Source of the DNA: Escherichia coli
Lineage (GTDB): Bacteria; Pseudomonadota; Gammaproteobacteria; Enterobacterales; Enterobacteriaceae
NCBI RefSeq assembly: GCF_003334785.1
Contig: NZ_QOWV01000008.1
Length of the DNA stretch: 64,000 bases
Strand: one strand, 5' to 3'
Shown: in pieces, positions 1,635 to 53,172 of the stretch
Layout: each line of letters starts with the position of its first letter
Position numbering within the stretch: the first letter of the stretch is position 1
Position numbers and translations under genes: made by a program
Notes under the pieces: generated by a model
What the model was told of the DNA's origin: nothing
What the model saw: only the letters and a program-made list of their open reading frames with translations
The model's database searches: none

Positions 1635-2291
1635 TTATTGGTTTACTGCATATACAACCAGAAATTGCAGCGGTGCAGTAATGATGTCCAGCGTAACAGT
1701 CACTGGCAGTAATGCTGCGGAAACACCATCCGGAATGCCTCTGGGTGAATAGTATTCATAAAATCGCACTTTAAATGGATGGTAGAACGCCATCACCTTT
1801 GAGTAATCCATGTTTTTATTTTTCTCATGGATTGTGCCTTTTAGGTTTTCCAGTGACCTGGTACAGTGTTGAACACCACAGGCAAAACCATAATGCGTTG
1901 CCAGTGCCTTTTCTTCTTCGTTATTCCAGTAGTAGTAAAGCGATATTGTGCCGGTAAATTTCTTTTTCCCCGCATTTAAAACAAATCTTGCGTCATCGGC
2001 AACCTGAATATTGTGCCGGTTAAGTGCTGGATCATTGAGCATCTTAACGATGTCATCGGCACCATCAGTGATAAGGTAATCCAGCGATTCCCCTACAAAA
2101 ACATAGCCTTTTGTTCCATTACTATCTTTTGCCTGCGATAGCCCAGTGATGGTGTCTGACTGCGATTGATACTTTCCTGAACTACCCTTTGCGGTATGGG
2201 AAACCAGAGCATACGAGATACAGCCTGAAAGCATCAGCGCCAGTGGGAATAAACCGGCAACCTTAAAAAATCCCTTAAAATTCAACTTCAT
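1635..2291 (-). CDS. yidX: Putative lipoprotein YidX
   Basis: ORF 1635..2408; internal Met MKLNFKGFF... followed by lipobox-like LSGC. Confidence 0.75.
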
Positions 2292-2568
2292 GATTAATCC
2301 TTTAAACGAGTAGCTAAGCCGTTGAAAGCATACTCTTCTTTCCCTCCTGTTTAGCGCCTGATATCCCTTTTCAGATTTCTGCCCGACGCATGTCATTTTT
2401 TTATGCATTGTTCTTTTTGTGATCTAAATTGTAGTACAACAATATAAGTTTGTACTACATTACACGCACGGCAAACGCGAACGTCATCACGCTGGTACTA
2501 CAAAGTTGCCGCGTTATGCATCGATCGGGGTAAAGTAGAGAAGAACATACAGAGCACAAGGACTCTCC

Positions 2569-3258
2569 ATGACTCTCAATAAAACCGATCGCATTGTCAT
2601 TACGCTGGGTAAACAGATCGTTCACGGCAAATACGTGCCAGGCTCGCCGCTTCCGGCTGAGGCGGAACTCTGTGAGGAGTTTGCAACCTCGCGCAACATC
2701 ATCCGTGAGGTGTTCCGTTCGCTGATGGCGAAGCGGCTGATTGAAATGAAACGTTATCGCGGGGCGTTTGTGGCACCGCGTAACCAGTGGAATTACCTCG
2801 ACACTGACGTACTGCAATGGGTGCTGGAAAATGACTACGACCCACGGCTTATCAGTGCCATGAGCGAAGTGCGAAATCTGGTGGAACCGGCGATTGCCCG
2901 TTGGGCAGCAGAGCGCGCGACTTCCAGCGATCTGGCGCAGATTGAATCGGCGCTGAACGAGATGATTGCCAACAATCAGGACCGCGAAGCGTTTAACGAA
3001 GCGGATATTCGCTACCACGAGGCGGTGCTGCAGTCGGTGCATAACCCGGTGTTACAGCAACTTAGCATTGCGATCAGTTCGCTGCAGCGGGCGGTTTTTG
3101 AACGAACCTGGATGGGCGATGAGGCCAACATGCCGCAAACGCTCCAGGAACATAAGGCGCTGTTCGATGCGATACGACATCAGGACGGCGATGCGGCAGA
3201 GCAGGCGGCGCTTACCATGATCGCCAGCTCGACACGAAGGTTAAAGGAAATCACATGA
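2569..3258 (+). CDS. dgoR: GntR-family galactonate operon repressor DgoR
   Basis: 229-aa ORF with N-terminal GntR-type HTH region, immediately upstream of dgoKAD. Confidence 0.9.
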   Translation: MTLNKTDRIVITLGKQIVHGKYVPGSPLPAEAELCEEFATSRNIIREVFRSLMAKRLIEMKRYRGAFVAPRNQWNYLDTDVLQWVLENDYDPRLISAMSEVRNLVEPAIARWAAERATSSDLAQIESALNEMIANNQDREAFNEADIRYHEAVLQSVHNPVLQQLSIAISSLQRAVFERTWMGDEANMPQTLQEHKALFDAIRHQDGDAAEQAALTMIASSTRRLKEIT

Positions 3259-4132
3259 CAGCTCGCTACATCGCAATTGACTGGGGATCGACCAATCTGC
3301 GCGCCTGGCTTTATCAGGGCGACCACTGCCTGGAGAGCAGGCAATCAGAAGCAGGCGTCACGCGCCTGAACGGAAAATCTCCGGCTGCGGTGTTAGCAGA
3401 AGTCACGACCGACTGGCGTGAAGAGAAAACGCCAGTGGTAATGGCAGGAATGGTTGGCAGCAACGTCGGCTGGAAAGTTGCACCGTATTTATCTGTTCCT
3501 GCCTGTTTTTCGTCTATTGGCGAACAATTAACGTCAGTTGGCGACAATATCTGGATTATTCCCGGATTATGTGTCTCTCATGACGATACCACAATGTGAT
3601 GCGCGGCGAAGAAACACAATTGATCGGCGCGCGAGCTCTGGCTCCTTCCTCTCTTTATGTCATGCCCGGAACCCATTGCAAATGGGTGCAGGCCGATAGC
3701 CAGCAAATCAACGATTTTCGCACCGTGATGACCGGTGAATTACATCATTTACTGTTAAATCACTCATTGATTGGCGCAGGTTTGCCGCCGCAGGAAAACT
3801 CTGCCGATGCCTTCACAGCTGGCCTTGAGCGTGGTCTTAATACGCCCGCCATATTGCCGCAGCTTTTTGAAGTTCGCGCCTCGCATGTGCTGGGAACACT
3901 TCCCCGCGAACAGGTCAGCGAATTTCTCTCTGGTTTGTTGATTGGCGCAGAGGTCGCCAGTATGCGCGACTATGTGGCCCATCAACACGCCATCACCCTT
4001 GTCGCCGGAACATCGCTGACCGCGCGCTACCAGCAAGCCTTTCAGGCGATGGGTTGCGACGTGACGGCGGTGGCGGGCGACACGGCATTTCAGGCTGGTA
4101 TAAGGAGCATCGCTCATGCAGTGGCAAACTAA
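3255..4132 (+). pseudogene. dgoK: 2-dehydro-3-deoxygalactonokinase DgoK, split by an apparent 1-nt frameshift near 3588..3599
   Basis: Two adjacent ORFs 3255..3599 (114 aa) and 3596..4132 (178 aa) in different frames; restoring one base gives a single 292-aa reading frame. Confidence 0.7.
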
Positions 4133-4733
4133 ACTCCCGCTGATCGCCATTTTGCGCGGTATTACGCCCGACGAGGCGCTGGCGCATGTTGGCGCGGTGA
4201 TTGACGCCGGGTTCGACGCGGTTGAAATCCCGCTGAATTCCCCACAATGGGAGCAAAGCATTCCCGCCATCGTTGATGCGTACGGCGACAAGGCGTTGAT
4301 TGGCGCAGGTACGGTACTGAAACCTGAACAGGTCGATGCGCTCGCCAGGATGAGCTGTCAGCTCATCGTTACGCCCAATATCCATAGTGAAGTGATCCGC
4401 CGTGCGGTGGGCTACGGCATGACCGTCTGCCCCGGCTGCGCGACGGCGACCGAAGCCTTTACCGCGCTCGAAGCGGGCGCGCAGGCGCTGAAAATATTTC
4501 CGTCATCGGCTTTTGGTCCGCAATACATCAAAGCGTTAAAAGCGGTATTGCCATCGGACATCGCAGTCTTTGCCGTTGGCGGCGTGACGCCAGAAAACCT
4601 GGCGCAGTGGATAGACGCAGGTTGTGCAGGGGCGGGCTTAGGCAGCGATCTCTATCGCGCCGGGCAATCCGTAGAGCGCACCGCGCAGCAGGCAGCAGCA
4701 TTTGTTAAGGCGTATCGAGAGGCAGTGCAATGA
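4116..4733 (+). CDS. dgoA: 2-dehydro-3-deoxy-6-phosphogalactonate aldolase
   Basis: 205-aa ORF overlapping dgoK end and dgoD start; KDPG-aldolase-like. Confidence 0.9.
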
Positions 4734-5878
4734 AAATCACCAAAATTACCACGTATCGTTTACCTCCCCGCTGGATGTTCCTGAAAATTGAAACCGATGA
4801 AGGCGTGGTCGGTTGGGGCGAGCCCGTGATCGAAGGCCGCGCCCGTACGGTGGAAGCGGCAGTTCACGAGCTGGGTGACTATTTGATTGGTCAGGATCCA
4901 TCGCGCATCAATGACTTATGGCAAGTGATGTATCGCGCCGGATTCTATCGCGGCGGTCCGATCCTGATGAGCGCCATCGCCGGGATTGACCAGGCGTTAT
5001 GGGATATCAAAGGTAAAGTGCTGAATGCGCCGGTCTGGCAACTGATGGGCGGCCTGGTTCGCGACAAAATTAAAGCCTACAGTTGGGTTGGCGGCGATCG
5101 TCCGGCGGATGTTATCGACGGCATTAAAACGCTACGCGAAATCGGCTTCGATACCTTCAAACTGAACGGTTGTGAAGAACTGGGGCTAATTGATAACTCC
5201 CGCGCGGTAGATGCGGCGGTTAACACCGTGGCACAAATTCGTGAAGCTTTTGGCAATCAGATTGAGTTTGGTCTTGATTTCCACGGTCGCGTCAGCGCGC
5301 CGATGGCGAAAGTGCTGATTAAAGAACTGGAGCCGTATCGCCCGCTGTTTATTGAGGAGCCGGTGCTGGCGGAACAAGCCGAATACTACCCGAAACTGGC
5401 GGCACAAACGCATATTCCACTGGCGGCGGGTGAACGCATGTTCTCACGCTTCGATTTTAAACGCGTGCTGGAGGCAGGTGGTATTTCGATTCTGCAACCG
5501 GATCTCTCCCACGCGGGCGGTATTACCGAATGCTACAAAATCGCCGGAATGGCAGAAGCCTATGACGTGACCCTTGCGCCGCACTGTCCGCTCGGACCGA
5601 TTGCACTGGCGGCTTGCCTGCATATCGACTTTGTTTCCTATAACGCCGTACTTCAGGAACAAAGTATGGGAATTCATTACAACAAAGGCGCGGAGTTACT
5701 CGACTTTGTGAAAAACAAAGAAGACTTCAGCATGGTCGGCGGCTTCTTTAAACCGTTAACGAAACCGGGCTTAGGCGTGGAAATCGACGAAGCTAAAGTG
5801 ATTGAGTTCAGTAAAAATGCCCCGGACTGGCGTAATCCGCTCTGGCGTCATGAAGATAACAGCGTAGCAGAGTGGTAA
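4730..5878 (+). CDS. dgoD: D-galactonate dehydratase (enolase superfamily)
   Basis: 382-aa [35 protein letters not shown]... Confidence 0.9.
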
Positions 5879-5997
5879 TTCCTGCCACGTAAGCCCCTCA
5901 TCGGGCACTAAAACAGCAATACAAAAATATAACCCTCTGTAAATTACAGGGCATGGTGAGCGGCTTCGCTATGCCCAAAATCTGGAGAAAGCTCGCT

Positions 5998-7290
5998 ATG
6001 GATATTCCCGTTAATGCAGCAAAGCCGGGGCGTCGGCGTTATCTGACGCTGGTGATGATCTTTATTACGGTAGTCATTTGTTATGTCGACCGCGCCAACC
6101 TGGCCGTGGCTTCCGCCCATATTCAGGAAGAGTTCGGCATTACCAAAGCGGAAATGGGCTATGTATTTTCGGCCTTCGCCTGGCTTTATACGCTATGTCA
6201 GATCCCCGGCGGTTGGTTTTTAGATCGCGTAGGTTCTCGCGTGACTTATTTTATTGCGATATTTGGCTGGTCAGTGGCGACTTTATTCCAGGGCTTTGCC
6301 ACGGGCTTAATGTCATTAATTGGTCTGCGCGCGATAACCGGTATTTTCGAAGCGCCTGCTTTCCCGACCAATAACCGGATGGTGACCAGCTGGTTCCCGG
6401 AACATGAACGCGCTTCTGCCGTTGGTTTTTATACGTCTGGTCAGTTTGTCGGTCTGGCGTTTCTGACGCCGCTGCTGATCTGGATTCAGGAGATGTTGAG
6501 CTGGCACTGGGTGTTCATTGTCACTGGTGGTATCGGCATTATCTGGTCGCTGATTTGGTTTAAGGTTTATCAGCCGCCGCGCCTGACCAAAGGTATCAGC
6601 AAAGCTGAACTGGATTACATTCGTGATGGCGGCGGTCTGGTGGATGGTGATGCGCCGGTGAAGAAAGAGGCGCGTCAGCCGTTAACAGCCAAAGACTGGA
6701 AACTGGTGTTCCATCGTAAACTGATCGGCGTTTATCTTGGGCAATTTGCGGTGGCTTCTACACTGTGGTTTTTCTTAACCTGGTTCCCGAACTATTTAAC
6801 CCAGGAAAAAGGAATCACGGCGCTGAAAGCAGGCTTTATGACCACGGTGCCATTCCTCGCGGCGTTTGTCGGCGTCCTGCTCTCTGGCTGGGTAGCGGAT
6901 CTGCTGGTACGTAAGGGCTTTTCACTGGGCTTTGCGCGTAAAACGCCGATTATCTGCGGCTTGCTGATCTCCACCTGCATTATGGGCGCTAACTACACTA
7001 ACGATCCGATGATGATTATGTGCCTGATGGCGCTGGCATTCTTCGGTAACGGTTTTGCTTCGATTACCTGGTCGCTGGTTTCTTCTCTGGCACCGATGCG
7101 CCTGATTGGTTTAACCGGCGGCGTGTTTAACTTCGCCGGTGGTCTGGGCGGCATCACCGTTCCGCTGGTGGTGGGGTACCTGGCGCAGGGTTACGGTTTC
7201 GCACCTGCACTGGTTTATATCTCCGCCGTCGCGTTGATTGGCGCGCTCTCTTATATCCTGCTGGTGGGCGATGTGAAGCGCGTTGGCTAA
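5998..7290 (+). CDS. dgoT: D-galactonate:H+ symporter (MFS)
   Basis: ORF 5953..7290; ATG at 5998 gives 430-aa [18 protein letters not shown]... membrane protein. Confidence 0.85.
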
Positions 7291-8351
7291 TCCTTCAACT
7301 GTGGAATATGTGCCACACCACTGCGCATAATCCACTTTCTTAAAGCCGGTGCGGTCAGGCATCGGCTTTTTACTATCTTGCCGAAGAGTTTTAAACGCAG
7401 TTTGCGGGTGGCGCGCCAGTAAGCGGTATTGAGCTTCTCTGGCTGCTTCAGTAACACCGAACGCAGAATGTCTGTGCTATCCAGCGCATAGCTAATCCCC
7501 TCCAGCGAGCTGGCGCTGATAAATCCCGCCGCTTCACCAATCAGAAAGGCGTTGTCCTTACCGCAGACAAAATCCTGCCAGCGCGAGGGAAACAGCACCG
7601 TGCATTTTTCGCTTTTCACCGTCTTACCAAACTGGAACTGAAAGGCGCTCATTTTCTCTTTCAGCGTCGTGAAACGCGTCTGACCGTCTTTCATTGGATA
7701 GGCACCGCCAAAGATAAAATAACCGTCTTTGCTGATACTCCATGAATAACAGTTAGTTATCGAATTATCAAAGATGCAGGAGTAGAACGGCACCGGATGT
7801 TTCTCCGCGAACCACTGCTGGATAGCGACATATTTACGGATTTGATGATCCGGGTAGAGATGTCGCCGCACCATCGAGTTTGCGCCATCGGCACCGACCA
7901 GATAGCGGGCGGTAATATGTTGCTCCCAGCCGTCTGCACGAAAAATGACATGCCATTTATCATCCTCACGCCAGATTTTTCGGCACAGGCTGTCGTGATA
8001 AACCTCAACGCTGGCGGGGATCAGCGATTTCATCCACAAGTCGAAAGCATGGCGATTAATATTGATATAGCTTCGCTGGTAGTTACGCGTGAGCGATGCG
8101 GCGACGTCGACGGTTTTGACGCTGAAAATCTGCGGATTAGCGATCACATCGACAGGAAGCGTCAGCCCATCGCGAATAAAAGATCGCTGCGCGTCCGGTG
8201 CCAGCAGACCGCCGCAGGGTTTGCTGAAACCTTCAGTACCACACTGGTGCTTTTTATCCAGCGCGATCACCTGCATTTTGCCTGCTAACTTTCGTGCCAA
8301 CGCCGATCCTGCCGGGCCGAGGCCAATAATCGCCACGTCGAAATGTTCCAT
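7287..8351 (-). CDS. cbrA: FAD-dependent oxidoreductase CbrA (colicin E2 tolerance)
   Basis: ORF 7287..8372; internal start [17 protein letters not shown] with GxGxxG FAD-binding motif; 354 aa. Confidence 0.8.
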
Positions 8352-14124: not shown

Positions 14125-17445
<3,321 letters not shown>

Positions 17446-17611: not shown

Positions 17612-19564
17612 ATGAATTCGTTACAAATCTTGAGTTTTGTCGGTTTTACGCTGCTGGTGGCGGTGATCACCTGGTGGAAGGTCCGCAAAACAGATACCGG
17701 ATCGCAACAAGGCTATTTTCTTGCCGGACGTTCACTAAAAGCGCCGGTTATTGCCGCTTCGTTAATGCTAACCAACCTTTCCACGGAACAACTGGTCGGC
17801 CTTTCCGGGCAGGCCTACAAAAGCGGCATGTCGGTGATGGGCTGGGAAGTGACTTCAGCGGTGACGCTGATCTTCCTCGCGCTAATCTTTTTACCGCGCT
17901 ATCTGAAGCGCGGCATTGCCACCATCCCCGATTTTCTGGAGGAACGTTATGATAAAACGACGCGTATTATCATCGACTTCTGCTTCCTAATTGCCACCGG
18001 CGTCTGCTTTCTGCCGATTGTTCTCTACTCCGGCGCGTTGGCGCTCAACAGCCTGTTTCACGTCGGGGAATCGCTACAGATTTCTCACGGTGCGGCTATC
18101 TGGCTACTGGTAATTTTGCTTGGTCTGGCGGGAATTTTGTATGCGGTGATCGGCGGACTGCGCGCAATGGCAGTGGCGGACTCCATCAACGGTATTGGGC
18201 TGGTTATCGGCGGGTTGATGGTGCCGGTATTTGGCCTGATCGCGATGGGCAAGGGCAGCTTTATGCAGGGCATTGAGCAACTCACCACCGTTCACGCCGA
18301 GAAATTAAACTCAATCGGTGGCCCGACCGATCCCTTGCCGATTGGCGCGGCATTTACCGGTTTGATTCTGGTGAACACCTTTTACTGGTGTACAAATCAG
18401 GGCATCGTGCAACGCACGCTGGCGTCAAAAAGCCTGGCGGAAGGGCAAAAGGGGGCGCTGTTAACGGCGGTGCTGAAAATGCTCGACCCGCTGGTACTGG
18501 TGCTGCCAGGGTTGATTGCGTTTCATCTGTATCAGGATTTACCGAAAGCCGACATGGCCTACCCGACGCTGGTCAATAACGTTCTGCCAGTGCCAATGGT
18601 GGGTTTCTTCGGCGCGGTGTTATTTGGTGCGGTGATCAGTACCTTCAACGGCTTTCTGAATAGCGCCAGTACGTTATTCAGTATGGGTATTTACCGTCGC
18701 ATCATTAACCAGAATGCCGAGCCGCAGCAGCTGGTCACCGTCGGGCGCAAATTTGGTTTCTTTATCGCTATCGTTTCGGTGCTGGTCGCGCCGTGGATCG
18801 CCAACGCGCCGCAGGGGCTGTATAGCTGGATGAAACAGCTCAACGGCATTTACAACGTGCCGCTGGTTACCATCATCATTATGGGCTTTTTCTTCCCGCG
18901 CATCCCGGCGCTGGCGGCAAAAGTAGCGATGGGGATTGGCATAATCAGCTACATCACCATCAACTATCTGGTGAAGTTCGACTTCCATTTCCTCTATGTG
19001 CTGGCCTGTACGTTCTGCATCAACGTGGTCGTGATGCTGGTGATCGGTTTTATCAAACCGCGCGCCACGCCGTTCACCTTCAAAGATGCGTTTGCGGTGG
19101 ACATGAAACCGTGGAAAAACGTCAAGATCGCGTCAATTGGCATCCTGTTCGCGATGATTGGCGTCTATGCCGGGCTGGCTGAATTCGGCGGCTACGGTAC
19201 GCGCTGGTTAGCGATGATCAGTTATTTCATTGCCGCCGTAGTGATTGTCTACCTGATTTTTGACAGCTGGCGGCGGAAGGTATTCGCTTTAATTCCGCCT
19301 ACACCTGTTCACCGGTTTGTACGCCTGCACGGGCCGGACTATTTACCGGTATCTACGCTAACCAGTCCGGCCCGTGGACCAACAACGTCGCGCCAGGCAA
19401 AAACATCTCCACTATGGGGCGCTACTTTAAGGATGCCGGCTATCACACCTGTTACATCGGCAAATGGCATCTCGACGGTCATGACTATTTCGGCACTGGC
19501 GAGTGTCCGCCGGAGTGGGACGCTGATTACTGGTTCGATGGGGCGAACTATCTTAGCGAACTGA
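17612..19564 (+). CDS. yidK: SSS-family solute:sodium symporter YidK with aberrant 3' extension into the yidJ region
   Basis: 650-aa ORF; first ~550 aa are a typical SSS membrane protein, the tail is an out-of-frame reading of the sulfatase gene. Confidence 0.7.
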   Translation: MNSLQILSFVGFTLLVAVITWWKVRKTDTGSQQGYFLAGRSLKAPVIAASLMLTNLSTEQLVGLSGQAYKSGMSVMGWEVTSAVTLIFLALIFLPRYLKRGIATIPDFLEERYDKTTRIIIDFCFLIATGVCFLPIVLYSGALALNSLFHVGESLQISHGAAIWLLVILLGLAGILYAVIGGLRAMAVADSINGIGLVIGGLMVPVFGLIAMGKGSFMQGIEQLTTVHAEKLNSIGGPTDPLPIGAAFTGLILVNTFYWCTNQGIVQRTLASKSLAEGQKGALLTAVLKMLDPLVLVLPGLIAFHLYQDLPKADMAYPTLVNNVLPVPMVGFFGAVLFGAVISTFNGFLNSASTLFSMGIYRRIINQNAEPQQLVTVGRKFGFFIAIVSVLVAPWIANAPQGLYSWMKQLNGIYNVPLVTIIIMGFFFPRIPALAAKVAMGIGIISYITINYLVKFDFHFLYVLACTFCINVVVMLVIGFIKPRATPFTFKDAFAVDMKPWKNVKIASIGILFAMIGVYAGLAEFGGYGTRWLAMISYFIAAVVIVYLIFDSWRRKVFALIPPTPVHRFVRLHGPDYLPVSTLTSPARGPTTSRQAKTSPLWGATLRMPAITPVTSANGISTVMTISALASVRRSGTLITGSMGRTILAN

Positions 19565-20658
19565 CGGAAAAAGAGATTAGCCTGTGGCGCAATGGCCTAA
19601 ACAGCGTCGAAGATTTACAGGCGAACCATATCGACGAAACCTTCACCTGGGCGCATCGTATCAGCAATCGGGCGGTGGATTTTCTGCAACAGCCTGCGCG
19701 CGCAGACGAGCCTTTCCTGATGGTGGTTTCGTATGATGAGCCGCATCACCCGTTCACCTGTCCGGTGGAGTATTTAGAGAAATACGCTGATTTTTACTAC
19801 GAGCTGGGCGAGAAAGCACAGGATGACCTGGCTAACAAACCGGAACATCACCGCTTATGGGCGCAGGCGATGCCATCGCCAGTCGGTGATGACGGGCTTT
19901 ATCACCATCCGCTCTATTTTGCCTGTAATGACTTTGTTGATGACCAAATCGGACGGGTCATCAATGCCTTAACGCCAGAGCAACGTGAAAATACGTGGGT
20001 TATTTATACCTCCGATCACGGCGAAATGATGGGCGCACATAAGCTGATCAGTAAAGGGGCGGCGATGTATGACGACATCACCCGCATTCCGCTGATCATC
20101 CGTTCGCCGCAAGGGGAGCGGCGACAGGTCGATACGCCAGTCAGTCATATCGATTTACTGCCGACAATGATGGCGCTGGCAGATATTGAAAAACCAGAGA
20201 TTCTGCCGGGGGAAAATATCCTTGCCGTGAAAGAGCCACGCGGCGTGATGGTGGAATTTAACCGCTACGAGATTGAGCATGACAGCTTTGGCGGTTTTAT
20301 TCCGGTGCGTTGCTGGGTGACGGATGACTTTAAACTGGTACTCAACCTCTTCACCAGTGATGAACTTTACGATCGCCGTAATGACCCAAATGAAATGCAT
20401 AACCTGATCGATGATATCCGTTTTGCAGACGTTCGCAGCAAAATGCATGACGCCTTATTGGATTACATGGACAAAATTCGCGATCCGTTCCGCAGTTACC
20501 AATGGAGTCTGCGTCCGTGGCGTAAAGATGCACGGCCGCGCTGGATGGGGGCGTTTCGTCCACGTCCACAAGATGGCTATTCGCCAGTTGTACGCGACTA
20601 TGACACCGGCCTACCGACACAAGGGGTGAAGGTGGAGGAGAAAAAACAGAAGTTCTGA
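19264..20658 (+). pseudogene. yidJ: Sulfatase YidJ, 5'-truncated (no in-frame start upstream of the CTPAR active-site motif)
   Basis: Sulfatase frame opens right after a TGA at 19261..19263; first ATG is at 19414, downstream of the CxPxR motif. Confidence 0.65.
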
Positions 20659-24737: not shown

Positions 24738-24784
24738 GTTTAAGCATCTCCCGGAAAGTCGGCCCAGAAGAAAAGGACTGGAGC

Positions 24785-41249: not shown

Positions 41250-41273
41250 TTTTGGCGGAAGATCACAGGAGTC
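41250..41273. repeat. Distal att repeat: 24-bp direct copy of the selC 3' end
   Basis: ttttggcggaagatcacaggagtc is identical to 53075..53098. Confidence 0.7.
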
Positions 41274-41401
41274 AAAATTGACATATAACAATTTGATTCC
41301 AATCGTTTATATTTATCAGCTCTAATTCATTTATACACATCCTTATACACATAATATCTGTCGATTAATTTTTACACGTATCTTCACGCACGTTAACTCA
41401 G

Positions 41402-41695
41402 GAAAAAAATTTTTTTTCGAAAGAACTGTTCACACTGTTCACCTTTCTGTTTTCTCCTTTTATTTCAGTTTGATAGGTGGTGAATAATGGGTGAAGGGTG
41501 AACATTCGATTCTTCACCTCCGGCATTCTGCCGGTGTGACTTGTGCAGGGGATTAATCCTCCGCACTGAAATCACACAGGGAGAAAAAAGTTTTTTTGAT
41601 TTGATTGTTCATCTTTCGTTTTTCTCTTTTAATTTCAGTGTGATAACGGGTGAATATACGGTGAAGGGTGAACAGTGGATTGTTCACTTTCGGGG
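41402..41695. repeat. crr-like region: two imperfect ~120-bp direct repeats with TGTTCAC motifs
   Basis: Units at about 41402..41522 and 41579..41695 share tgttcac / gggtgaa / ggtgaagggtgaaca blocks. Confidence 0.6.
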
Positions 41696-41703
41696 AATTC
41701 AGG

Positions 41704-41731
41704 GATAAAAAAAGACCGGCAGATGCCGGTC
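41704..41731 (-). terminator. Rho-independent terminator after alpha
   Basis: gaccggcagatgccggtc hairpin with U-run on the minus strand. Confidence 0.6.
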
Positions 41732-41738
41732 AGATGAG

Positions 41739-44072
41739 TCAGGCTGTTGCAGGGTCGTCACATTTCGGCAGCCAGTCGCCGTAGCTTTCCTCTTTCAGCG
41801 TCAGGTTGGTCTGTATCCCCTGTTTGGTATGGCGCTTCTCGTAATTCAGTCCGTATTCCTTCAGCATCACCGGCAGCCCCAGCCCGAACATTTTCAGACT
41901 GAGTACATTCCGGTAGCCGTTTGCCTCCATGTAGGCCAGATAGGCGTGATAGAGGTATTTACGGTAATTACGCGGGATGATACTGGCGTTCCCCATATAC
42001 ATGCCGCTGGTCTGCGGCAGGGTTTCCAGATAGCCGATAAAATCAAACGTCGGGTCGGCATCCCGTTTGATGTTCAGTGCCTCGTCTGAGTTCTGCTGGG
42101 ACTGAAGCAGTGACCGGGCGAGCATCGGGTCGCTGAACTTCTGCATCAGGTAACGCACGATGACCGCCAGCTCGCGGGTGATTTTGTCCTTAAGCTGCGG
42201 GTCGCGCTCCTGCGGGGCTATCTGTTCCGGGAAGTGAATAATCACCCGCCGGCGTGACACGCCGCCGCTGCGGTCGGTGAAGCGCATCGGGTTATTGTTC
42301 ACGGCCAGAATCACCGCCGGGATGTGCGTGGAGTACGCATCCCGGTATTTCGGGTCAACGGACACCGCATCGCCGCCGGTGATGGCCTTGAGTCCGGCAC
42401 CGTCGCCGCTCCATTTTTCCTGGTCCGGCAGGCGTATCAGTGAGAAGCCAGTTAACGCGGCACGTTCACGCGGGGATTCCAGCGTCTCGATGGTGGCCGA
42501 CGTGGCGTTATCCTCACCGGCCAGCAGGGTGGCTATTTCGGCCATGATACTTTTGCCGCTGCCGCCGGGACCGGTCACCTCCAGAAAGAGCTGCCAGTCG
42601 TAGCGGTTTGCCAGCACCATAAACAGTGCGGCCAGAATCACGTCGCGTTTTTCCGCACGGCCACCGGCGGCACGGTCAAGCCAGCGCCAGAATGCGGGGG
42701 CGTGGGTTTCCAGCGTTTCACCTTCCACCGGCGGGGTGAAATCCACATCGCACAGGGCGCGCATCCAGTGTGACGGACTGTGCGGGTGGAACGTGCCGTT
42801 CTGCGTGTCGAGCACGCCGTTACGAAAGCCAATCAGGCGGCGGGAGGGGGCTTCCTGCTGCGGAATAATCAGCTTCAGGGTGTCCACCACGGAGGCCACC
42901 TTCCCGGAGGAGAACGGCGCGCGCAGACGCTGAAACAGCCCGGCCACATCCCGGGCAAAGTCCTGTGGTGGCAGCACCTTCCAGACACCATTTTCATAGC
43001 GGGACAGAAGCTGGCCGTTGGCATCGACCGCGAGCGCCTCGCCGTAATGCTCATAGATACGCATGGCCTTTTCGCTGGTACTCATGGCGGAAAACTCCGC
43101 TTCGCTCATGGTGTCGAACGGGCTTTCAGCCGGTGGCCGGATGGCATCATAAATGGCCTTACGGGTGGTTTCCCCGCCGTACTGCGTGAAGGCATCATTC
43201 CAGTCACCGAAGACCGGCGGCAGGGCAACAACGCCCTCACACGCATCTGCGGCTGCGGCGGCTTTTTTCTGGCCGTCACCGCTGAGGTCACGGTCTGCGG
43301 CAAGGACAATCTGACAGGCCGGATGCTTCTGCCGGGCAAGGCTGGCCAGAGAAAGGAGGTTCACGGAAGAAAGCGCCACCATCACCGTTTCACCGGTCAG
43401 GTGATGTACGGTAAGTGCGGTCGCGTATCCCTCCGCTATCCACAGACGTTTTCCGGCCTGATTCTGTCCTTCAAGGGTGTGACAGGTGCCCCTGACCTGT
43501 CCGCCTTTCAGGGTGCGCTTACGGCCGTCAGCACTGATTAACTGAAGGTTAACCAGTTCGCCGCTGTCGTCATACAGTGGCACCACAAGGTCACCGGCGC
43601 GCCAGCTCACGCCACCGGCTCTGTGTGTGCCGGTCAGCATCCGGCATTCCCGGCCGGGAAAGCCCTTGCGGGTCAGGTAGGCGTTACCGGTTCCGGGACG
43701 GGTTTTCGCCATCAGGGTTTGTGCCAGTGCGGCGGCGTTCTTCCGGGCGGCTTCTGTTTCAGCACCGGCGGCGGCCGTCACTGCCGGGTCAGCCGGGGGC
43801 AGGCAGCCGGTCACGGCAGCCACCTTTGCGGCCGCGTCGGACGGGGAAACACCAAACACCTTTTCAACCAGTTTCAGGCCGTCACCGGCACCACACTGAT
43901 TGCAGTACCAGGTGCCGCGCCCCTCCCTGTCATCAAAACGGAAACGGTCACTTCCGCCACAGACCGGACAGGGCTGATGACGGTTTTTCAGCACCTGAAT
44001 CCCCAGCGACGGGAGAATACGCGGCCAGTGGCCGAGCGCATGGCTGACGGTGGCGGTTACGTTCATTTTCAT
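41739..44072 (-). CDS. P4 alpha-type primase-helicase
   Basis: 777-aa ORF; N-terminal zinc-ribbon CPVCGG..CNQCG, Walker A GPGGSGKS. Confidence 0.9.
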   Translation of the reverse strand: MKMNVTATVSHALGHWPRILPSLGIQVLKNRHQPCPVCGGSDRFRFDDREGRGTWYCNQCGAGDGLKLVEKVFGVSPSDAAAKVAAVTGCLPPADPAVTAAAGAETEAARKNAAALAQTLMAKTRPGTGNAYLTRKGFPGRECRMLTGTHRAGGVSWRAGDLVVPLYDDSGELVNLQLISADGRKRTLKGGQVRGTCHTLEGQNQAGKRLWIAEGYATALTVHHLTGETVMVALSSVNLLSLASLARQKHPACQIVLAADRDLSGDGQKKAAAAADACEGVVALPPVFGDWNDAFTQYGGETTRKAIYDAIRPPAESPFDTMSEAEFSAMSTSEKAMRIYEHYGEALAVDANGQLLSRYENGVWKVLPPQDFARDVAGLFQRLRAPFSSGKVASVVDTLKLIIPQQEAPSRRLIGFRNGVLDTQNGTFHPHSPSHWMRALCDVDFTPPVEGETLETHAPAFWRWLDRAAGGRAEKRDVILAALFMVLANRYDWQLFLEVTGPGGSGKSIMAEIATLLAGEDNATSATIETLESPRERAALTGFSLIRLPDQEKWSGDGAGLKAITGGDAVSVDPKYRDAYSTHIPAVILAVNNNPMRFTDRSGGVSRRRVIIHFPEQIAPQERDPQLKDKITRELAVIVRYLMQKFSDPMLARSLLQSQQNSDEALNIKRDADPTFDFIGYLETLPQTSGMYMGNASIIPRNYRKYLYHAYLAYMEANGYRNVLSLKMFGLGLPVMLKEYGLNYEKRHTKQGIQTNLTLKEESYGDWLPKCDDPATA

Positions 44073-44086
44073 GGTGTTGTTCTCCT

Positions 44087-44407
44087 TCAGTGCAGTACCG
44101 GCGCTTTTATGTGACGGGCACAGAGTTCATCCATCACAACCAGCCCGAGAAAGGACAGCGACGGCGCGGCCTTCAGGGGGCCGGATTCCATTAAATCTTC
44201 CAGCAGGGCACAGGCTATCTGACGCCCTTTTTCCTCACCGTGCTGGCGCAGATAAAAGCCTTCCAGCTCAGCGGCGATGGCCGCCTCCAGTGACTCAAGG
44301 GTGAGATGCGGGTAGCGGTGCTGACGTTCGCACACGGTCAGCCAGGCACAGGCGACAGCGCGACGGTAAAGGGCAGCGCGTAAGACGGGCGGTAAGGGGG
44401 TTTTCAT
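44087..44407 (-). CDS. Hypothetical protein, P4 left-operon position (orf106-like)
   Basis: 106-aa ORF immediately upstream of alpha, same strand. Confidence 0.5.
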
Positions 44408-44542
44408 TTGTTTTCCTCCCTGTGACAGATGACTGCATTCCGTGCCGGTTGCATTAACTGATAAGGCATATCTGCGTCTCCTGAAGACGTGCGTATCCCT
44501 GCGCGAATACGCACATTTAATTTTTCGGGTGTCGTTTTTTAA

Positions 44543-44998
44543 TTACAGATAATTGCGGTAACTGTTATCCGGGGTGATTTCCGGGTCAGGCTCCGTGCGG
44601 GGAATTTCCCGCCATTCCCGCGCCACCGGTGCCGCCCGGCTGACCGGAACAGGGTCCTGCGGGTAAATATCCAGATATTTCTCCCGCCATTTCTGTAATT
44701 CCGGGTCTCCGGCCATTTCTTTCAGTACCGCATGCCGGTTTACGGGGCTGCGTTTAAACAGGTCAGGACGGTCACAGGTAAATTCCCGCAGAAAACGCCC
44801 CAGCGGGATGTCTGTGGTGCGCCCGTCGGCGATGATACGCACAAGGATACTGAATTTACGGCGGTACGGGTTCCAGACAATTTCCGGGCAGCGGTACGGC
44901 ATTTCCCACGGAATACCGTCTTCCAGAATGCCGACCACGGCCACATCGGGAAAACCGGCAGAACGGTAAATCTCACCGGGCTGGGGAAAATCAAACAT
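44543..44998 (-). CDS. Hypothetical protein, P4 left-operon position (orf151-like)
   Basis: 151-aa ORF co-oriented with alpha. Confidence 0.5.
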   Translation of the reverse strand: MFDFPQPGEIYRSAGFPDVAVVGILEDGIPWEMPYRCPEIVWNPYRRKFSILVRIIADGRTTDIPLGRFLREFTCDRPDLFKRSPVNRHAVLKEMAGDPELQKWREKYLDIYPQDPVPVSRAAPVAREWREIPRTEPDPEITPDNSYRNYL

Positions 44999-45857
44999 GC
45001 GTCCTGTCTCCCCGGTCTTTCTGCTGGGCGAGAAAATCGCGGCACAGGCCTTTGGCTTTCAGCTCATTCAGCACAAAATCAATATCTTCATTCAGGTAAC
45101 TGAAAATATGCGGAATGTAGAGCTGATGCAGGCCGGAGAGTTCACGGTGAATCAAATCACCCCCAACAAACTGGGATACGGCGCTGGCGCGGTTGAGCTT
45201 ATGGTAAGCCTCAATGCTGAGGTGTTCACGGGCGTCATGACGCGCTGAGACGGTCTGAGGGGCTTTTTTATTACGCACGGGACACCTCCACCACCGGCAG
45301 ACGGGCAGCAAGGGAGAGCACATAGTCACGGACAAGGGAACGGCGGGCGCTGCGTTCATCACCGGCGACGGTGCGAAGCATACAGATACGGGGATGACGG
45401 TCTGTGCGACGGACAGCCGCAAACACAAAGACAAATTCAGGGTGTGAGGGGGTAAGGGTTGTAGCCATGATGGCAGCCTCCTGTGAATAGCAAATAACGC
45501 TATCGCCGGAGTTCTCACGCTCGATGGCGATAGCCCAGACGGGGGTGAGAATACCGGCTTCACAGGATACCGGCCAGCCCGGAGGCTGCCCCGCCTGAGC
45601 TACCATTGACTCAGAGGCATAACATGCGATTGCGAACAGGATCATACCTGCACGGCAAACCACACGCCACACCATAATCTGGTGCTCTGTGGCGTTGATT
45701 GCGACACAAAAAAAGACGCATGGCGCGTCATATGTCGCCTGTGAATTGCTCGGGTTCTCACGCCCGGCTGCCGATTTTGCGGCAGCGGAAAAACTATATC
45801 CGCAAATGCCGGAAAAAGGCAAGCCAGAAAAAGGGAGTTTTTGCAGAGCGGGCATCA

Positions 45858-46124
45858 TCATGCGTCGTACCCCCGTTTGCGTCCGGCAATGCGTCCGGCC
45901 ATCCATGCGGTGACTTCAGAGTGCAGCCAGGCCACATTTTTACCGCCAAGACTCACCTGCGGCGGAAATTCCCCCTTACGGATGAGTTCGTAGATGGTCG
46001 AGCGTGACAGGCCGCACAGGTGCATCACTTCCGGAAGACGTAAAAAACGCTCCTGTGTGATGTCCGGCAGCGGCATCAGTGGCGTCACAGGGGCGGGAGA
46101 CGGGGAAGAAAAAACAGCTTGCAT
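45858..46124 (-). CDS. AlpA/Vis-family small DNA-binding regulator
   Basis: 88-aa ORF with HTH-like [16 protein letters not shown]. Confidence 0.65.
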
Positions 46125-46403
46125 CGGGCTACCTCGTTAATGTCCATACAGCACCGGATAAGTCCGTCCGGCTTCAGGTAGCGCTTTATTTTGTGAATAT
46201 TTTCAGCAGACGCAACAGGGGGGATTTGTTCCGGCAGCCTTACAATGCTTGTGTATTTTTTGTTCATCTCCACTTAAAGTCATTTAAAGCCACTTAAAGC
46301 AATTCGTAATTTTTATAGTGAAATACAAATCGTTTTTTCTTATTCATTCCCGGCGAATTAATAAAAACAAACAGTAATAAACAGCACAAAAAGCCCATCA
46401 ACG

Positions 46404-46508
46404 GGTGAACAGTGGTGAACAGACGGTGAACAGTCATTACTGCGATTGTTCACCCTTTAACTTACTGTATTACTTATCTTTTTTCTTATGGTGAACAGAG
46501 GTGAACAG
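46404..46508. repeat. ori-like iteron cluster (GGTGAACAG octamer copies)
   Basis: Five direct copies of ggtgaacag plus one inverted ttgttcacc within about 105 bp, between divergent vis and sid. Confidence 0.6.
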
Positions 46509-46676
46509 TAAAATATAAAAAAACAAACAGTAAGCCGGTTTTTCCTACGACCTTTTCCTGGCTTGCCGGTGTGAGGATGAGTCTCCTGTGTCAGGGCTGG
46601 CACATCTGCAATGCGTCGTGTTGTTGTCCGGTGTACGTCACAATTTTCTTAACCTGAAGTGACGAGGAGCCGGAAA

Positions 46677-47411
46677 ATGTCTGACAACACCATCCCTGAA
46701 TATCTGCAACCCGCACTGGCACAACTGGAAAAGGCCAGAGCCGCCCACCTTGAGAACGCCCGACTGATGGATGAGACCGTCACGGCCATTGAACGGGCAG
46801 AGCAGGAAAAAAATGCGCTGGCGCAGGCCGACGGAAATGACGCTGATGACTGGCGCACAGCCTTTCGTGCAGCCGGTGGTGTCCTGAGCGACGAGCTGAA
46901 ACAGCGCCACATTGAGCGCGTGGCACGCCGGGAGCTGGTACAGGAATATGACAATCTGGCCGTGGTGCTGAATTTTGAACGTGAACGCCTGAAAGGGGCG
47001 TGTGACAGCACGGCTACCGCCTACCGGAAGGCACATCATCACCTTCTGAGTCTGTATGCAGAGCATGAGCTGGAACACGCCCTGAATGAAACCTGTGAGG
47101 CGCTTGTCCGGGCAATGCATCTGAGCATTCTGGTACAGGAAAATCCGATCGCCAACACCACCGGCCATCAGGGCTACGTCGCACCCGATAAGGCTGTCAT
47201 GCAGCAGGTGAAATCATCGCTGGAACAGAAAATTAAACAGATGCAAATCAGCCTCAGCGGCGAGCCGGTTCTCCGGCTGACCGGACTGTCAGCGGCAACA
47301 CTTCCGCACATGGATTATGAGGTGGCAGGCACACCGGCACAGCGCAAGGTGTGGCAGGACAAAATAGACCAGCAGGGAGCAGAGCTTAAGGCCAGAGGAC
47401 TGCTGTCATGA
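46677..47411 (+). CDS. P4 Sid-like capsid size-determination scaffold
   Basis: ORF 46659..47411; ATG at 46677 preceded by gaggag RBS; 244 aa, coiled-coil-rich. Confidence 0.8.
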   Translation: MSDNTIPEYLQPALAQLEKARAAHLENARLMDETVTAIERAEQEKNALAQADGNDADDWRTAFRAAGGVLSDELKQRHIERVARRELVQEYDNLAVVLNFERERLKGACDSTATAYRKAHHHLLSLYAEHELEHALNETCEALVRAMHLSILVQENPIANTTGHQGYVAPDKAVMQQVKSSLEQKIKQMQISLSGEPVLRLTGLSAATLPHMDYEVAGTPAQRKVWQDKIDQQGAELKARGLLS

Positions 47412-47908
47412 TTTACTGCCCGTCGTGTGGACATGTTGCTCACACCCGCCGCGCACATTTTATGGACGATGGCACCAAGATAATGATTGCACAGTGCCGG
47501 AATATTTATTGCTCTGCGACATTTGAAGCGAGTGAAAGCTTTTTCTCTGACAGTAAAGATTCAGGAATGGAATACATTTCAGGCAAACAGAGATACCGCG
47601 ATTCACTGACGTCAGCCTCCGGTAGCATGAAGCGCCCGAAAAGAATGCTTGTTACCGGATATTGTTGTCGGAGATGTAAAGGCCTTGCACTGTCAAGAAC
47701 ATCGCGGCGTCTGTCTCAGGAAGTCACCGAGCGTTTTTATGTGTGCACGGATCCGGGCTGTGGTCTGGTGTTTAAAACGCTTCAGACCATCAACCGCTTC
47801 ATTGTCCGCCCGGTCACGCCGGACGAACTGGCAGAAAGCCTGCATGAAAAACAGGAACTGCCGCCAGTACGCTTAAAAACACAATCATATTCGCTGCGTC
47901 TGGAATGA
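47408..47908 (+). CDS. P4 Delta-like late transactivator (tandem Ogr-type zinc finger)
   Basis: 166-aa ORF with two CxxC..CxxC blocks (CPSCGH..CRNIYC and CRRCKG..CTDPGC). Confidence 0.8.
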   Translation: MIYCPSCGHVAHTRRAHFMDDGTKIMIAQCRNIYCSATFEASESFFSDSKDSGMEYISGKQRYRDSLTSASGSMKRPKRMLVTGYCCRRCKGLALSRTSRRLSQEVTERFYVCTDPGCGLVFKTLQTINRFIVRPVTPDELAESLHEKQELPPVRLKTQSYSLRLE

Positions 47909-47981
47909 GGGCTGCCGGTTAACACCGGCCGTCGCCGCACACCGTATTTTTATTCTTCAGCATGATGAGAAAGAGATAACG

Positions 47982-48554
47982 ATGGAAAGCACAGCCTTAC
48001 AGCAGGCCTTTGACACCTGTCAGAATAACAAAGCAGCATGGCTGCAACGCAAAAATGAGCTGGCTGCGGCCGAACAGGAATATCTGCGGCTTCTGTCAGG
48101 AGAAGGCAGAAACGTCAGTCGCCTGGACGAATTACGCAATATTATCGAAGTCAGAAAATGGCAGGTGAATCAGGCCGCCGGTCGTTATATTCGTTCGCAT
48201 GAAGCCGTTCAGCACATCAGCATCCGCGACCGGCTGAATGATTTTATGCAGCAGCACGGCACAGCACTGGCGGCGGCACTGGCACCGGAGCTGATGGGCT
48301 ACAGTGAGCTGACGGCCATTGCCCGAAACTGTGCCATACAGCGTGCCACAGATGCCCTGCGTGAAGCCCTTCTGTCCTGGCTTGCGAAGGGTGAAAAAAT
48401 TAATTATTCCGCACAGGATAGCGACATTTTAACGGCCATTGGATTCAGACCTGACGCGGCTTCGGTGGATGACAGCCGTGAAAAATTCACCCCTGCGCAG
48501 AACATGATTTTTTCGCGTAAAAGTGCGCAACTGGCATCACGTCAGTCTGTGTAA
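47982..48554 (+). CDS. P4 Psu-like polarity suppression / capsid decoration protein
   Basis: 190-aa ORF following delta. Confidence 0.8.
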   Translation: MESTALQQAFDTCQNNKAAWLQRKNELAAAEQEYLRLLSGEGRNVSRLDELRNIIEVRKWQVNQAAGRYIRSHEAVQHISIRDRLNDFMQQHGTALAAALAPELMGYSELTAIARNCAIQRATDALREALLSWLAKGEKINYSAQDSDILTAIGFRPDAASVDDSREKFTPAQNMIFSRKSAQLASRQSV

Positions 48555-48718
48555 AATTCCCCGAAAATCCGCCCGTTTTTACTGAAAAAAGCCATGCATC
48601 GATAAGGTGCATGGCTTTGCATGCGTTTTCCTGCCTCATTTTCTGCAGATCGCGCCACGCCCGGCGTGGCCTGAGCGTGTCAGCGCAACTGCATTAAAAC
48701 CATCCCACAAAGCGGGCG

Positions 48719-48737
48719 GGCGAGGCGGGGAAAGCAC
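48719..48737. other. cos site (P2/P4-type 19-nt cohesive end sequence)
   Basis: ggcgaggcggggaaagcac. Confidence 0.6.
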
Positions 48738-48979
48738 TGCGCGCTTACTTAGATGCGTGAATTTATTTATATCACTGAAGTATATCCCTAAGCTCATTTC
48801 TCAAAGGGCCTATGGTTGCACAAGGTTGTACCATGGCATTCAAAACTTTTTAAACCAAGAATGACAATTTCATTATTAGGCCGGAATAGTTACTAATTTT
48901 AGTATAGGTTGCGATTGTTTAACGCATTTTTTATTATGATGCAGATTTTATTATTACTAATGGGGTGCAAAAAACACGT

Positions 48980-50269
48980 ATGAAAAAAAATGTTGGTAAC
49001 CGCAATAAAAATTCTGATGTGCTTATTCTTAAAGGTATGTTGAACAATTTAAAAGATGGTTTAAATAATTTTGAATTATTGCTTAAATTGCAGTTTAAAA
49101 TATTGGTGTGCGTGATGAGATGTGAGCGGAAAATTAAGTTTCTTAAAAAGAATAATGCTCATTTAAGGTCGGTGTTAAAAAAATCAAGACTTCCAAAAGA
49201 AAAATCTCTGGCAGTAAAAGAAAAAATTAAATACAATTCTGAAGTAATTACTGCTGAAAAATTCAAGATATATACGTATAAAATGTTTGGCGATGCTGTT
49301 GCATTTTTATACATCGATAAATATACAATTAAACAGTTATACTACAATGTACATAATTACAATGTTAAAGAAACGTCGGGGGATTTGAGCGGTAAGTCTG
49401 GATTGCGAGAGGAATGGGAATGCGTAAAACTTGCATGTGATAATAAAGTTCCAGCTCTGTTGCATGATATTACAATGAGTATAAGGCATGGAGATGTATC
49501 ACTTTTAGGTAAAGATGAGCCATTTATTATTGAGATGAAATCAAGCTCAAATACAAATAAGAGAGTTGAGCGGCAAAAATCTAACCTTGAAAAATTAGGA
49601 AGTTTCATAGCAAAAGACGAAGCTGAAAATTTTCGAGGGATTCCATTGTTAATCAGGAAAAATTTGTTAACTGAAGAGGAATCATATTCTCAGGTTTTAA
49701 ATGAGTGTCTTAATGATTGTCGCAGCAAAGGAATGGCTTTGGTTGAAGCTGAAAAAGGATTTTATATCTGCGCAGTTAGAGAAGGGAATATGGCTTCTAT
49801 GCTAGAAAATATAGATTTTGATGAAAAAAAAGAAGTTTTTCCTGTATTTCTCAATCAATATAAAAATAATGGGGAGTGGCTACCATTAACACCATTTACA
49901 CTATTAATTAACGATCCTTACGATCTCCATGATTTTATCGAAGGGGAATTAACAATAGCTTGTTTTTTAATGCTCGATGAATACAAAAAAATTGCTATAG
50001 AACTAGGCTATGAATTAGTTTTTGTTTCTAATGATGAATATAGTATCTTGTTAAAAAGAATTGGTGAAGATATTATATTTGGTGTTTCCTGGCAAATGTT
50101 GTTAAGAGTTCCATTAGAGATGATGTCCATGTCATGGTTGATAAAAGAAAGTATTAATATATATAGTAACTCCCTAGAAAATAGCACCCATAATGATGAA
50201 TTAAATCAGGGGCAGGGAAATACTAAAAATTCATTATTCGAAAAATACAAGAATTTATTTTCTTACTAA
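48980..50269 (+). CDS. Hypothetical protein in satellite variable region; PD-(D/E)xK-like signature
   Basis: ORF 48965..50269 (GTG) or ATG at 48980; AT-rich; motif HGDVSLLGKDEPFIIEMK. Confidence 0.6.
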   Translation: MKKNVGNRNKNSDVLILKGMLNNLKDGLNNFELLLKLQFKILVCVMRCERKIKFLKKNNAHLRSVLKKSRLPKEKSLAVKEKIKYNSEVITAEKFKIYTYKMFGDAVAFLYIDKYTIKQLYYNVHNYNVKETSGDLSGKSGLREEWECVKLACDNKVPALLHDITMSIRHGDVSLLGKDEPFIIEMKSSSNTNKRVERQKSNLEKLGSFIAKDEAENFRGIPLLIRKNLLTEEESYSQVLNECLNDCRSKGMALVEAEKGFYICAVREGNMASMLENIDFDEKKEVFPVFLNQYKNNGEWLPLTPFTLLINDPYDLHDFIEGELTIACFLMLDEYKKIAIELGYELVFVSNDEYSILLKRIGEDIIFGVSWQMLLRVPLEMMSMSWLIKESINIYSNSLENSTHNDELNQGQGNTKNSLFEKYKNLFSY

Positions 50270-50301
50270 TTAAGCATTGTAATTATATTTGATTTTTTCT
50301 A

Positions 50302-50335
50302 CAGGCTTGGACGGAATCATATAGCTCCAAGCCTG
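50302..50335. terminator. Hairpin between the two convergent cargo ORFs
   Basis: Perfect 10-bp stem caggcttgga..tccaagcctg with 14-nt loop. Confidence 0.45.
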
Positions 50336-50370
50336 TTGTGTCGGTATCAAAAAGAAAGTGATATTATTGT

Positions 50371-51744
50371 TTATCTAATATATTTTGTTACTTCCATATT
50401 ATCTTCATCGTCAAAAGAGTACTCAACCATCATACGACTATTTTTACCTGACTTAATATCTTGAAGCCAAGCTGAGGCAACCCTAGGGTCTAAATGCTGT
50501 TTTCTACTCAGCTCATTATTTTTTAGCCTATCAAGCCTTATTGCTCTTTGAAGAGTTTTATCGATGTAGTCTTCCAAATCAATGGACAACCTCCTTTTTG
50601 GATATAAATATTGGTATTCATCACACAATAGTACTCCTGGTAATTTAATTTCGCGTAGGTCGAAAGAATACCAACTATAGTTTTTAGACTCATTAGCTAA
50701 TTCCGAAACTAGATGAGCCCCATTTTGTTGTAAGAGAGATATTTTGTGATCGATGCTAATGTCAGATATTTCTCTTAAAGACTCAAAATGCATGTTTTCG
50801 TAGATAGTATTTAATAAAATACTCTCCATGTAAGAGTAAAAATCAGTACCATCGATGATAATATTAGTTTCATTGTAGACTGCAAGAGACATAAGATATA
50901 TGAAGAAAACTGCGGGAGTACTATTACCTCTGTTTATATCAAGTCTAAGGGAGTTGACATAATCAGGCGGAGAGTTTGAGAAAATTTCTCTTATTAACCA
51001 GTCTGGAATAGTGGTTCTTGTTAGAATGTCAGCGTTCAAACTTGAACGACATAAAAAAATACACATCTTTAATTTTAATTTTATTGAAAATGATGGGAAT
51101 AAATGATCGATGAAAGATAAAATACATGTATACTCTGCTAAGTCTGTTTGTTGCAACTTTTCTTTTATTTCATTTTCAAGCATTTTTAATTTAAAAAAAT
51201 CATTCCTTTTTTCTAATATTTCCCAATGAAATAATTGCTCCTGAGCGTACGCATGCCCCTCTAAAATAGCTAGCATGCTTAAAGGAATGTTTAGGATTTC
51301 TTGATAATTATTAACATACCCAAAGAAATGGACTCTGATATACACACCCATATCGTCATCATATTGTAATGATGCTTTAATATTTTTATAATTTAATTTA
51401 TTAGTGCTGTTGTTTTTGAAGTGATAATGTAAAGTAATTTCAGTATCATCAACTAATAAATTATCAAAAGCCTCCTTTGTTTCATATTTAAAATAGTTAT
51501 ATAGCCGACATGAATAATTTAACCCCCAGTGAGTTGTAGAACAATCAAGTAAATGGATTGTTTCATGGAGATATGTTTTATAAAATTCAATTTCGCTATC
51601 ATCAAAATCATATATGCTTTTACTGTCTATGATATTTTGTGCTTGCGGTAAACTTATATTTAATTCATCGTTTGAAATCTCAATTAAATGTGATGAAAAA
51701 TCATAAGAACCCAATGTTTTGCTGTTAAATATACATCCGCTCAT
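50371..51744 (-). CDS. Hypothetical protein with HEXXH zinc-metallopeptidase motif, translationally coupled to int
   Basis: 457-aa AT-rich ORF; YLHETIHLLD at residues 58..67; start overlaps int stop as ATGA; agggga RBS. Confidence 0.65.
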   Translation of the reverse strand: MSGCIFNSKTLGSYDFSSHLIEISNDELNISLPQAQNIIDSKSIYDFDDSEIEFYKTYLHETIHLLDCSTTHWGLNYSCRLYNYFKYETKEAFDNLLVDDTEITLHYHFKNNSTNKLNYKNIKASLQYDDDMGVYIRVHFFGYVNNYQEILNIPLSMLAILEGHAYAQEQLFHWEILEKRNDFFKLKMLENEIKEKLQQTDLAEYTCILSFIDHLFPSFSIKLKLKMCIFLCRSSLNADILTRTTIPDWLIREIFSNSPPDYVNSLRLDINRGNSTPAVFFIYLMSLAVYNETNIIIDGTDFYSYMESILLNTIYENMHFESLREISDISIDHKISLLQQNGAHLVSELANESKNYSWYSFDLREIKLPGVLLCDEYQYLYPKRRLSIDLEDYIDKTLQRAIRLDRLKNNELSRKQHLDPRVASAWLQDIKSGKNSRMMVEYSFDDEDNMEVTKYIR

Positions 51745-52916: not shown

Positions 52917-53077
52917 GTGTATAAGCCAAAAATATGTATAAAAAATCTATACACATCACTATACATATTTTTCATGGATTCAGGGAGATCTTGTCGGACG
53001 GTTACGGATGAGTGATTTACTATATGTTTTGAAAATAAAGGATTTTTAGACTCTCTCGGATGGTGACGGAAGAATTT

Positions 53078-53172
53078 TGGCGGAAGATCACAGGAGTCGA
53101 ACCTGCCCGGGACCGCTGGCGGCCCCAACTGGATTTGAAGTCCAGCCGCCTCACCGGAGACGACGATCTTCC
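53078..53172 (-). tRNA. selC: tRNA-Sec (selenocysteine)
   Basis: Minus strand reads GGAAGATCGTCGTCTCCGGTGAGGCGGCTGGACTTCAAATCCAGTTGGGGCCGCCAGCGGTCCCGGGCAGGTTCGACTCCTGTGATCTTCCGCCA. Confidence 0.85.

Follow-up and report, generated by a model that had tools for sequence, protein, structure and literature searches.

The dgoK gene of Escherichia coli K-12 (b3693; WP_000127091.1) lies in the dgoRKADT operon and encodes a 2-dehydro-3-deoxygalactonokinase of one 292-aa chain. Deletion of dgoK in strain BW25113 abolishes D-galactonate catabolism (PMC12076931). D-galactonate is the effector of DgoR, and the loss of dgoA is toxic through the build-up of the phosphorylated intermediate (PMC12288454). 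The 2-oxo-3-deoxygalactonate kinase of Klebsiella pneumoniae (PDB entry 3R1X) is also a single chain.

Organization of the dgo locus

The window (the whole stretch of 64,000 nucleotides of E. coli DNA analysed here, from contig NZ_QOWV01000008.1) has the same operon order as K-12, with the same flanking genes and the same overlaps of dgoR with dgoK and of dgoK with dgoA, and dgoK occupies its expected place in a dgoR-dgoK-dgoA-dgoD-dgoT operon. The two differ in dgoK itself: where K-12 encodes one 292-aa protein, the window has ORFs of 114 and 178 aa and lacks one A of codon 112. The features of the operon are as follows.

2569..3258, + strand: dgoR, repressor gene, intact; its stop overlaps the dgoK start (WP_000174305.1, identical to K-12 in the relatives)
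3255..4132, + strand: dgoK pseudogene (2-dehydro-3-deoxygalactonokinase), 878 bp against 879 bp when intact
3255..3599, + strand: ORF1, 114 aa from an ATG start; residues 1-111 of native DgoK followed by Thr-Thr-Met and a stop
3588..3588, + strand: site of the 1-bp deletion in codon 112; one A in place of the AA of intact alleles (GATAACC to GATACC)
3596..4132, + strand: ORF2, 178 aa from GTG or 177 aa from the ATG at 3599; native residues 115/116-292, without a Shine-Dalgarno sequence
3597..3599, + strand: premature TGA, three codons past the deletion, overlapping the GTG at 3596-3598 and the ATG at 3599-3601 (ATGTGATG)
4116..4733, + strand: dgoA (aldolase), intact, with its own strong Shine-Dalgarno sequence AAGGAG (-8.5 kcal/mol)
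4730..5878, + strand: dgoD (galactonate dehydratase), intact
5953..7290, + strand: dgoT (galactonate transporter), intact

Complete copies of dgoR, dgoA, dgoD and dgoT are found both in the window and in every genome that carries the same deletion. Over the first 8.1 kb the window differs from K-12 only at positions 535 and 2260, at the deletion and at 4353, and the dgo promoter and operator are therefore those of K-12. A promoter scan of 2300..7400 found nothing, and terminator-like matches in the same interval did not exceed the shuffled expectation and are uninformative on polarity.

The single-base deletion in dgoK

Positions 3255..4132 of the window were aligned with the dgoK gene of K-12 strain RP437 (879 bp, 292 aa). 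The alignment contains a single gap and no substitutions, with all 878 aligned bases identical, in agreement with the single-base frameshift proposed in a preliminary description of this DNA. The sequence GACGATAACCAC of K-12 becomes GACGAT-ACCAC in the window. The lost A is one of the two that open codon 112 (AAC, Asn), the surviving A is position 3588, and the site is an AA dinucleotide rather than a homopolymer run. The preliminary description had placed the missing base at 'gacgatacc-acaatg', which is 3 nt too far downstream; the true gap lies between GAT and ACC. A base added at the former position restores the frame equally well, but the alleles differ at the latter. Putting the A back at 3588 yields the 292-aa K-12 DgoK protein, and the repaired gene overlaps dgoA (ATG at 4116) by 17 nt, as it does in K-12; the earlier expectation that one added nucleotide would restore a 292-aa frame overlapping dgoA was thus borne out.

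The single uninterrupted frame of ~290 aa that is characteristic of DgoK is broken at codon 112. ORF1 and ORF2 lie in different frames, exactly at the coordinates and in the form first reported. Their products each match Pfam family PF05035 (DGOK), and their juxtaposition is therefore not due to chance. The two-ORF structure, which might also have been that of the reference gene, is absent from K-12, where dgoK is one uninterrupted 879-bp ORF. The intact orthologues examined have AA at the site and the Klebsiella and Sinorhizobium homologues are continuous through the segment, which makes the single A the derived state.

The stop/start overlap ATGTGATG spans 3594-3601. The best anti-Shine-Dalgarno duplex within 20 nt upstream of 3596 or 3599 has an energy of +0.3 kcal/mol, as against -5.6 kcal/mol at the genuine start of dgoK, -8.5 at dgoA, -5.8 at dgoD and -5.1 at dgoR. 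This confirms the earlier remark that the second ORF, which begins with GTG, lacks a ribosome-binding site of its own. Judged from the sequence of the deletion allele, full-length 292-aa DgoK is predicted not to be made from it.

Conservation and structural model of DgoK

The repaired protein belongs to the DGOK family by homology: it matches PF05035 over residues 9-286 (E = 3.7e-96) and PDB entry 3R1X end to end (E = 7.5e-162). In an alignment of 85 homologues the segments D9-W10-G11, G104, R117-G118-E119-E120 and P138-G139-T140-H141 are invariant, V115 and M116 are nearly so, and positions 105-114 are variable. ORF1 lacks 61% of DgoK, including the motifs of the second domain. ORF2 comprises 178 of the 292 residues, among them R117-G118-E119-E120 and P138-G139-T140-H141.

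An AlphaFold2 model was calculated from the 85-sequence alignment (pLDDT 97); a single-sequence run was discarded at pLDDT 33. In the model the break falls at the turn of a β-hairpin formed by strands 104-109 and 112-116, directly before a helix at residues 119-129. By the general architecture of the ASKHA (acetate and sugar kinase/Hsc70/actin) fold, this helix probably links to the second domain; the placement of the DgoK domains is based on the model together with that general architecture.

Distribution and inheritance of the deletion allele

An exact-match census of the 60-nt deletion junction returned five of the 5,426 complete RefSeq E. coli genomes, that is five of the 4,182 genomes that match the region. 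In the other ~4,180 the region is present without the junction, and those examined have AA. The five carriers are LR-64-2 (NZ_AP027595.1; human faeces, Ecuador), JKHS016 (hospital wastewater, Japan), AST198 (human, Japan), 364_BP0073 (urine, Cambodia) and E423 (cloacal swab, China). The deletion allele is 100% identical across the carriers, and PGAP labels dgoK 'frameshifted' in all five.

A second marker lies 1.3 kb upstream of the deletion.

2260..2260, - strand: SNP in yidX, lineage marker; A in the window, G in K-12 and the closest non-carriers

Searched for as an exact 60-mer among the complete genomes, 2260A was found in these five alone. Both 2260A and the deletion are also present in a gut-metagenome scaffold from ENA (L003) and in another draft assembly (L005). 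The perfect co-segregation with the yidX SNP, which is unlike the behaviour of a recurrent artefact, indicates that the deletion arose once and was inherited clonally. The exact 114-aa product of ORF1 was found in 457 contigs and in 764 indexed blocks of NCBI, ENA and Logan assemblies, and its sources include the older Illumina drafts HVH 209 and 2-011-08_S3_C2 and a 90-kb human-gut metagenome scaffold; the exact 177-aa product of ORF2 was found in 667 contigs.

A SNP matrix was compiled over the 41.3-kb shared flank, with ML35, Z1323PEC0012, BA92 and FORC 064 as the closest non-carriers. All three of 2260A, the deletion and 27199C are present in the window and the carriers and absent from these four genomes. 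The carriers have 1-5 private SNPs each over the 41 kb, in a star-like pattern, and pairs of carriers differ by 2-8 SNPs per 41 kb. The window is identical to none of the five; from its best match, LR-64-2, it differs by SNPs at 24747 and 25666 and by an additional 11.8-kb island at selC. On these markers the window genome is very probably a further member of a small lineage found today over a wide geographical range. Rough short-term substitution rates for E. coli, applied to the 2-8 SNPs per 41 kb, suggest that the lineage is between some decades and a few centuries old. Divergence within it is too small for any relaxation of selection on dgoK to show, the allele being identical in all carriers.

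Some carriers have further differences. AST198 has a dgoR missense change at the equivalent of window position 3014 (A to T; WP_464288114.1) and an ISShdy1 insertion in yidE. The L003 scaffold, in which the deletion is present, otherwise matches the window but has 11 clustered SNPs in dgoD (equivalent to window positions 5284..5542), which look like either a short recombination patch or a chimera of the metagenome assembly.

Interpretation of the broken reading frame

The locus is very probably a genuine inherited loss-of-function allele of dgoK, an ordinary pseudogene that arose once and has since been passed on clonally. Single-base indels are a common assembly artefact, and a true genome with AA at the site would have an intact dgoK. 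Such an error is highly improbable here: the site is a dinucleotide, the identical deletion occurs in five complete genomes that come from different countries and were sequenced in different laboratories, and it is seen again in Illumina-era drafts, Logan assemblies and a metagenome scaffold. Perfect co-occurrence with an unrelated SNP 1.3 kb away is, moreover, not to be expected of a recurrent error. The preliminary description had left the choice between a real inactivating mutation and a homopolymer-type sequencing error; with the allele and its linked SNP in five genomes the former stands, whereas the change from AA to A does not involve a homopolymer at all. A break in the reading frame could also be bridged by programmed +1 ribosomal frameshifting or by transcriptional slippage, restoring full-length DgoK, but beyond the two overlapping frames nothing points to it. 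A +1 shift would have to take place within ~15 nt (3584-3596), between the TGA at 3581-3583 and that at 3597-3599. This stretch, CGATACCACAATG, contains no slippery heptamer, no prfB-like CUU-UGA with an upstream Shine-Dalgarno sequence and no A/T run, and recoding was rejected for want of a motif. The two-frame arrangement is, in addition, found in only five of ~4,180 genomes rather than being conserved, and we regard the probability of recoding as close to negligible.

The remaining explanation is that dgoK has become a functional split gene, in which ribosomes terminate at the TGA at 3597-3599 and re-initiate at the ATG at 3599 or the GTG at 3596, so that fragments of 114 and 177 aa form an active two-chain ASKHA kinase. 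The overlap of stop and start in ATGTGATG (UGAUG) is a geometry that permits termination-reinitiation. Only the native residues N112-N114 are lost, from a variable hairpin-turn stretch before the conserved VMRGEETQ and helix 119-129; every invariant residue is kept on one fragment or the other, and the other genes of the operon are intact in every carrier. The restart codon, however, has no Shine-Dalgarno sequence (+0.3 kcal/mol, compared with -5 to -8.5 kcal/mol at genuine starts), and in the AlphaFold2 model the hairpin strand 112-116 would be disrupted and the invariant R117-E120 left at a free N-terminus. The 84 aligned homologues, which range down to 33% identity, are without exception single polypeptides, and a search of other taxa for a conserved split DgoK returned only short metagenome contigs, one of them broken elsewhere. 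An intact operon would be expected in any case in such a young lineage. Weak re-initiation may give rise to some C-terminal fragment, to judge from the overlapping codons, but a functional split kinase is unlikely, and we give it only a few chances in a hundred. Were it to exist, the lineage would keep some D-galactonate catabolism in spite of the 'pseudogene' label.

Predicted mechanism and phenotype

Under the preferred reading, that of an inherited null allele, one A of the AA in codon 112 was lost once on a K-12-like haplotype, shifting the frame into a TGA three codons later, and the mutation was then inherited clonally. D-galactonate would still be sensed by DgoR, imported by DgoT and dehydrated by DgoD, all of which are intact, but the resulting 2-dehydro-3-deoxy-D-galactonate would not be phosphorylated and the unphosphorylated intermediate would accumulate. 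The ~520 nt of dgoK that would go untranslated may also lower the expression of dgoA, dgoD and dgoT through (Rho-dependent) polarity. Taken together with the literature on the loss of dgoK and dgoA, the intact dgoR, dgoT and dgoD lead us to expect induction, uptake and dehydration without growth; carriers are thus expected to be unable to use D-galactonate as a carbon source and not to grow on it.

Possible further losses of dgoK and neighbouring features

dgoK has no megablast match in 405 of the 5,426 complete E. coli genomes, and several other shortened DgoK products recur in public assemblies, among them products of 118 aa (40 contigs), 165 aa (40 contigs) and 121 aa (35 contigs). In a more distant enterobacterial metagenome contig (L017) the gene is split at approximately residue 140. 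dgoK may thus have been lost or have decayed independently on several occasions, although some of these products could simply come from genes truncated by the end of a contig.

Two neighbouring stretches of the window, 15741..16555 and 17612..20658, contain other pseudogenes. One is a frameshifted, glvG-like glycosyl hydrolase gene of family 4, and the others are yidK and yidJ, which are annotated as partial and mutually overlapping. These pseudogenes are also present in non-carriers such as ML35 and BA92 and are hence older than the dgoK deletion. At position 24747 the window has a T where nine of the nine relatives compared have C. This private SNP lies ~10 nt downstream of the T-run that ends the ivbL/ilvB attenuator terminator, 38 nt ahead of the start of ilvB, and may be either a genuine mutation of this genome or an error of sequencing.

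The additional island at selC is a P4-like satellite prophage with the following features.

41273..53074: P4-like satellite prophage, 11.8 kb, at selC
41739..44072: primase
47408..47908: delta/ogr-like regulator
47982..48554: Psu
48965..50269: ORF between psu and int; matches only phrog_14906 (unknown function)
50371..51744: ORF between psu and int; no match in PHROGs, NCBIfam or PADLOC
51741..52916: integrase
53078..53172, - strand: tRNA-Sec (selC)

The interval between psu and int in P4-like elements is a site of anti-phage systems. An island covering at least 80% of the 41273..53074 stretch was found in 10 of the 5,426 complete genomes. The island is absent from the carriers LR-64-2, JKHS016, AST198 and 364_BP0073 and from the non-carrier ML35, whereas E423 has a P4-like element at this position.

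Comparison with known systems

The five carriers whose dgoK is labelled 'frameshifted' by PGAP have the same allele and the same yidX SNP as the window. The kind of event is already known, the allele is already marked in RefSeq and no new mechanism is involved. The lineage-wide distribution of the deletion comes from the database census made here; a literature search turned up no account of the specific allele, which the accessible text of PMC12288454 does not name either. On its own the finding matters little, and it is mildly interesting for ecology. The deletion of one A in dgoK and yidX 2260A together provide a two-marker signature of the lineage, and a D-galactonate-negative phenotype would be predicted for a sublineage that can be recognized in this way.

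In the mouse gut the use of D-galactonate is under selection, and dgoR knock-outs are favoured there time and again (PMC9509342; PMC12288454); these knock-outs are subject to negative frequency-dependent selection (PMC9509342). Since D-galactonate use is selected in this setting, a circulating lineage that is predicted to be kinase-null would offer a ready contrast for colonization experiments.

Compared with the K. pneumoniae kinase, in which the DDNHNVMRGEETQ segment struck by the deletion is identical, the window differs in continuity: 3R1X is one chain, whereas the chain of the window is interrupted between residues 111 and 115. PMC12288454, citing the strain panel of Galardini 2017, mentions natural isolates in which structural dgo genes are pseudogenized and dgoR is intact. 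The window resembles these isolates in having a structural gene of the operon inactivated while dgoR is intact.
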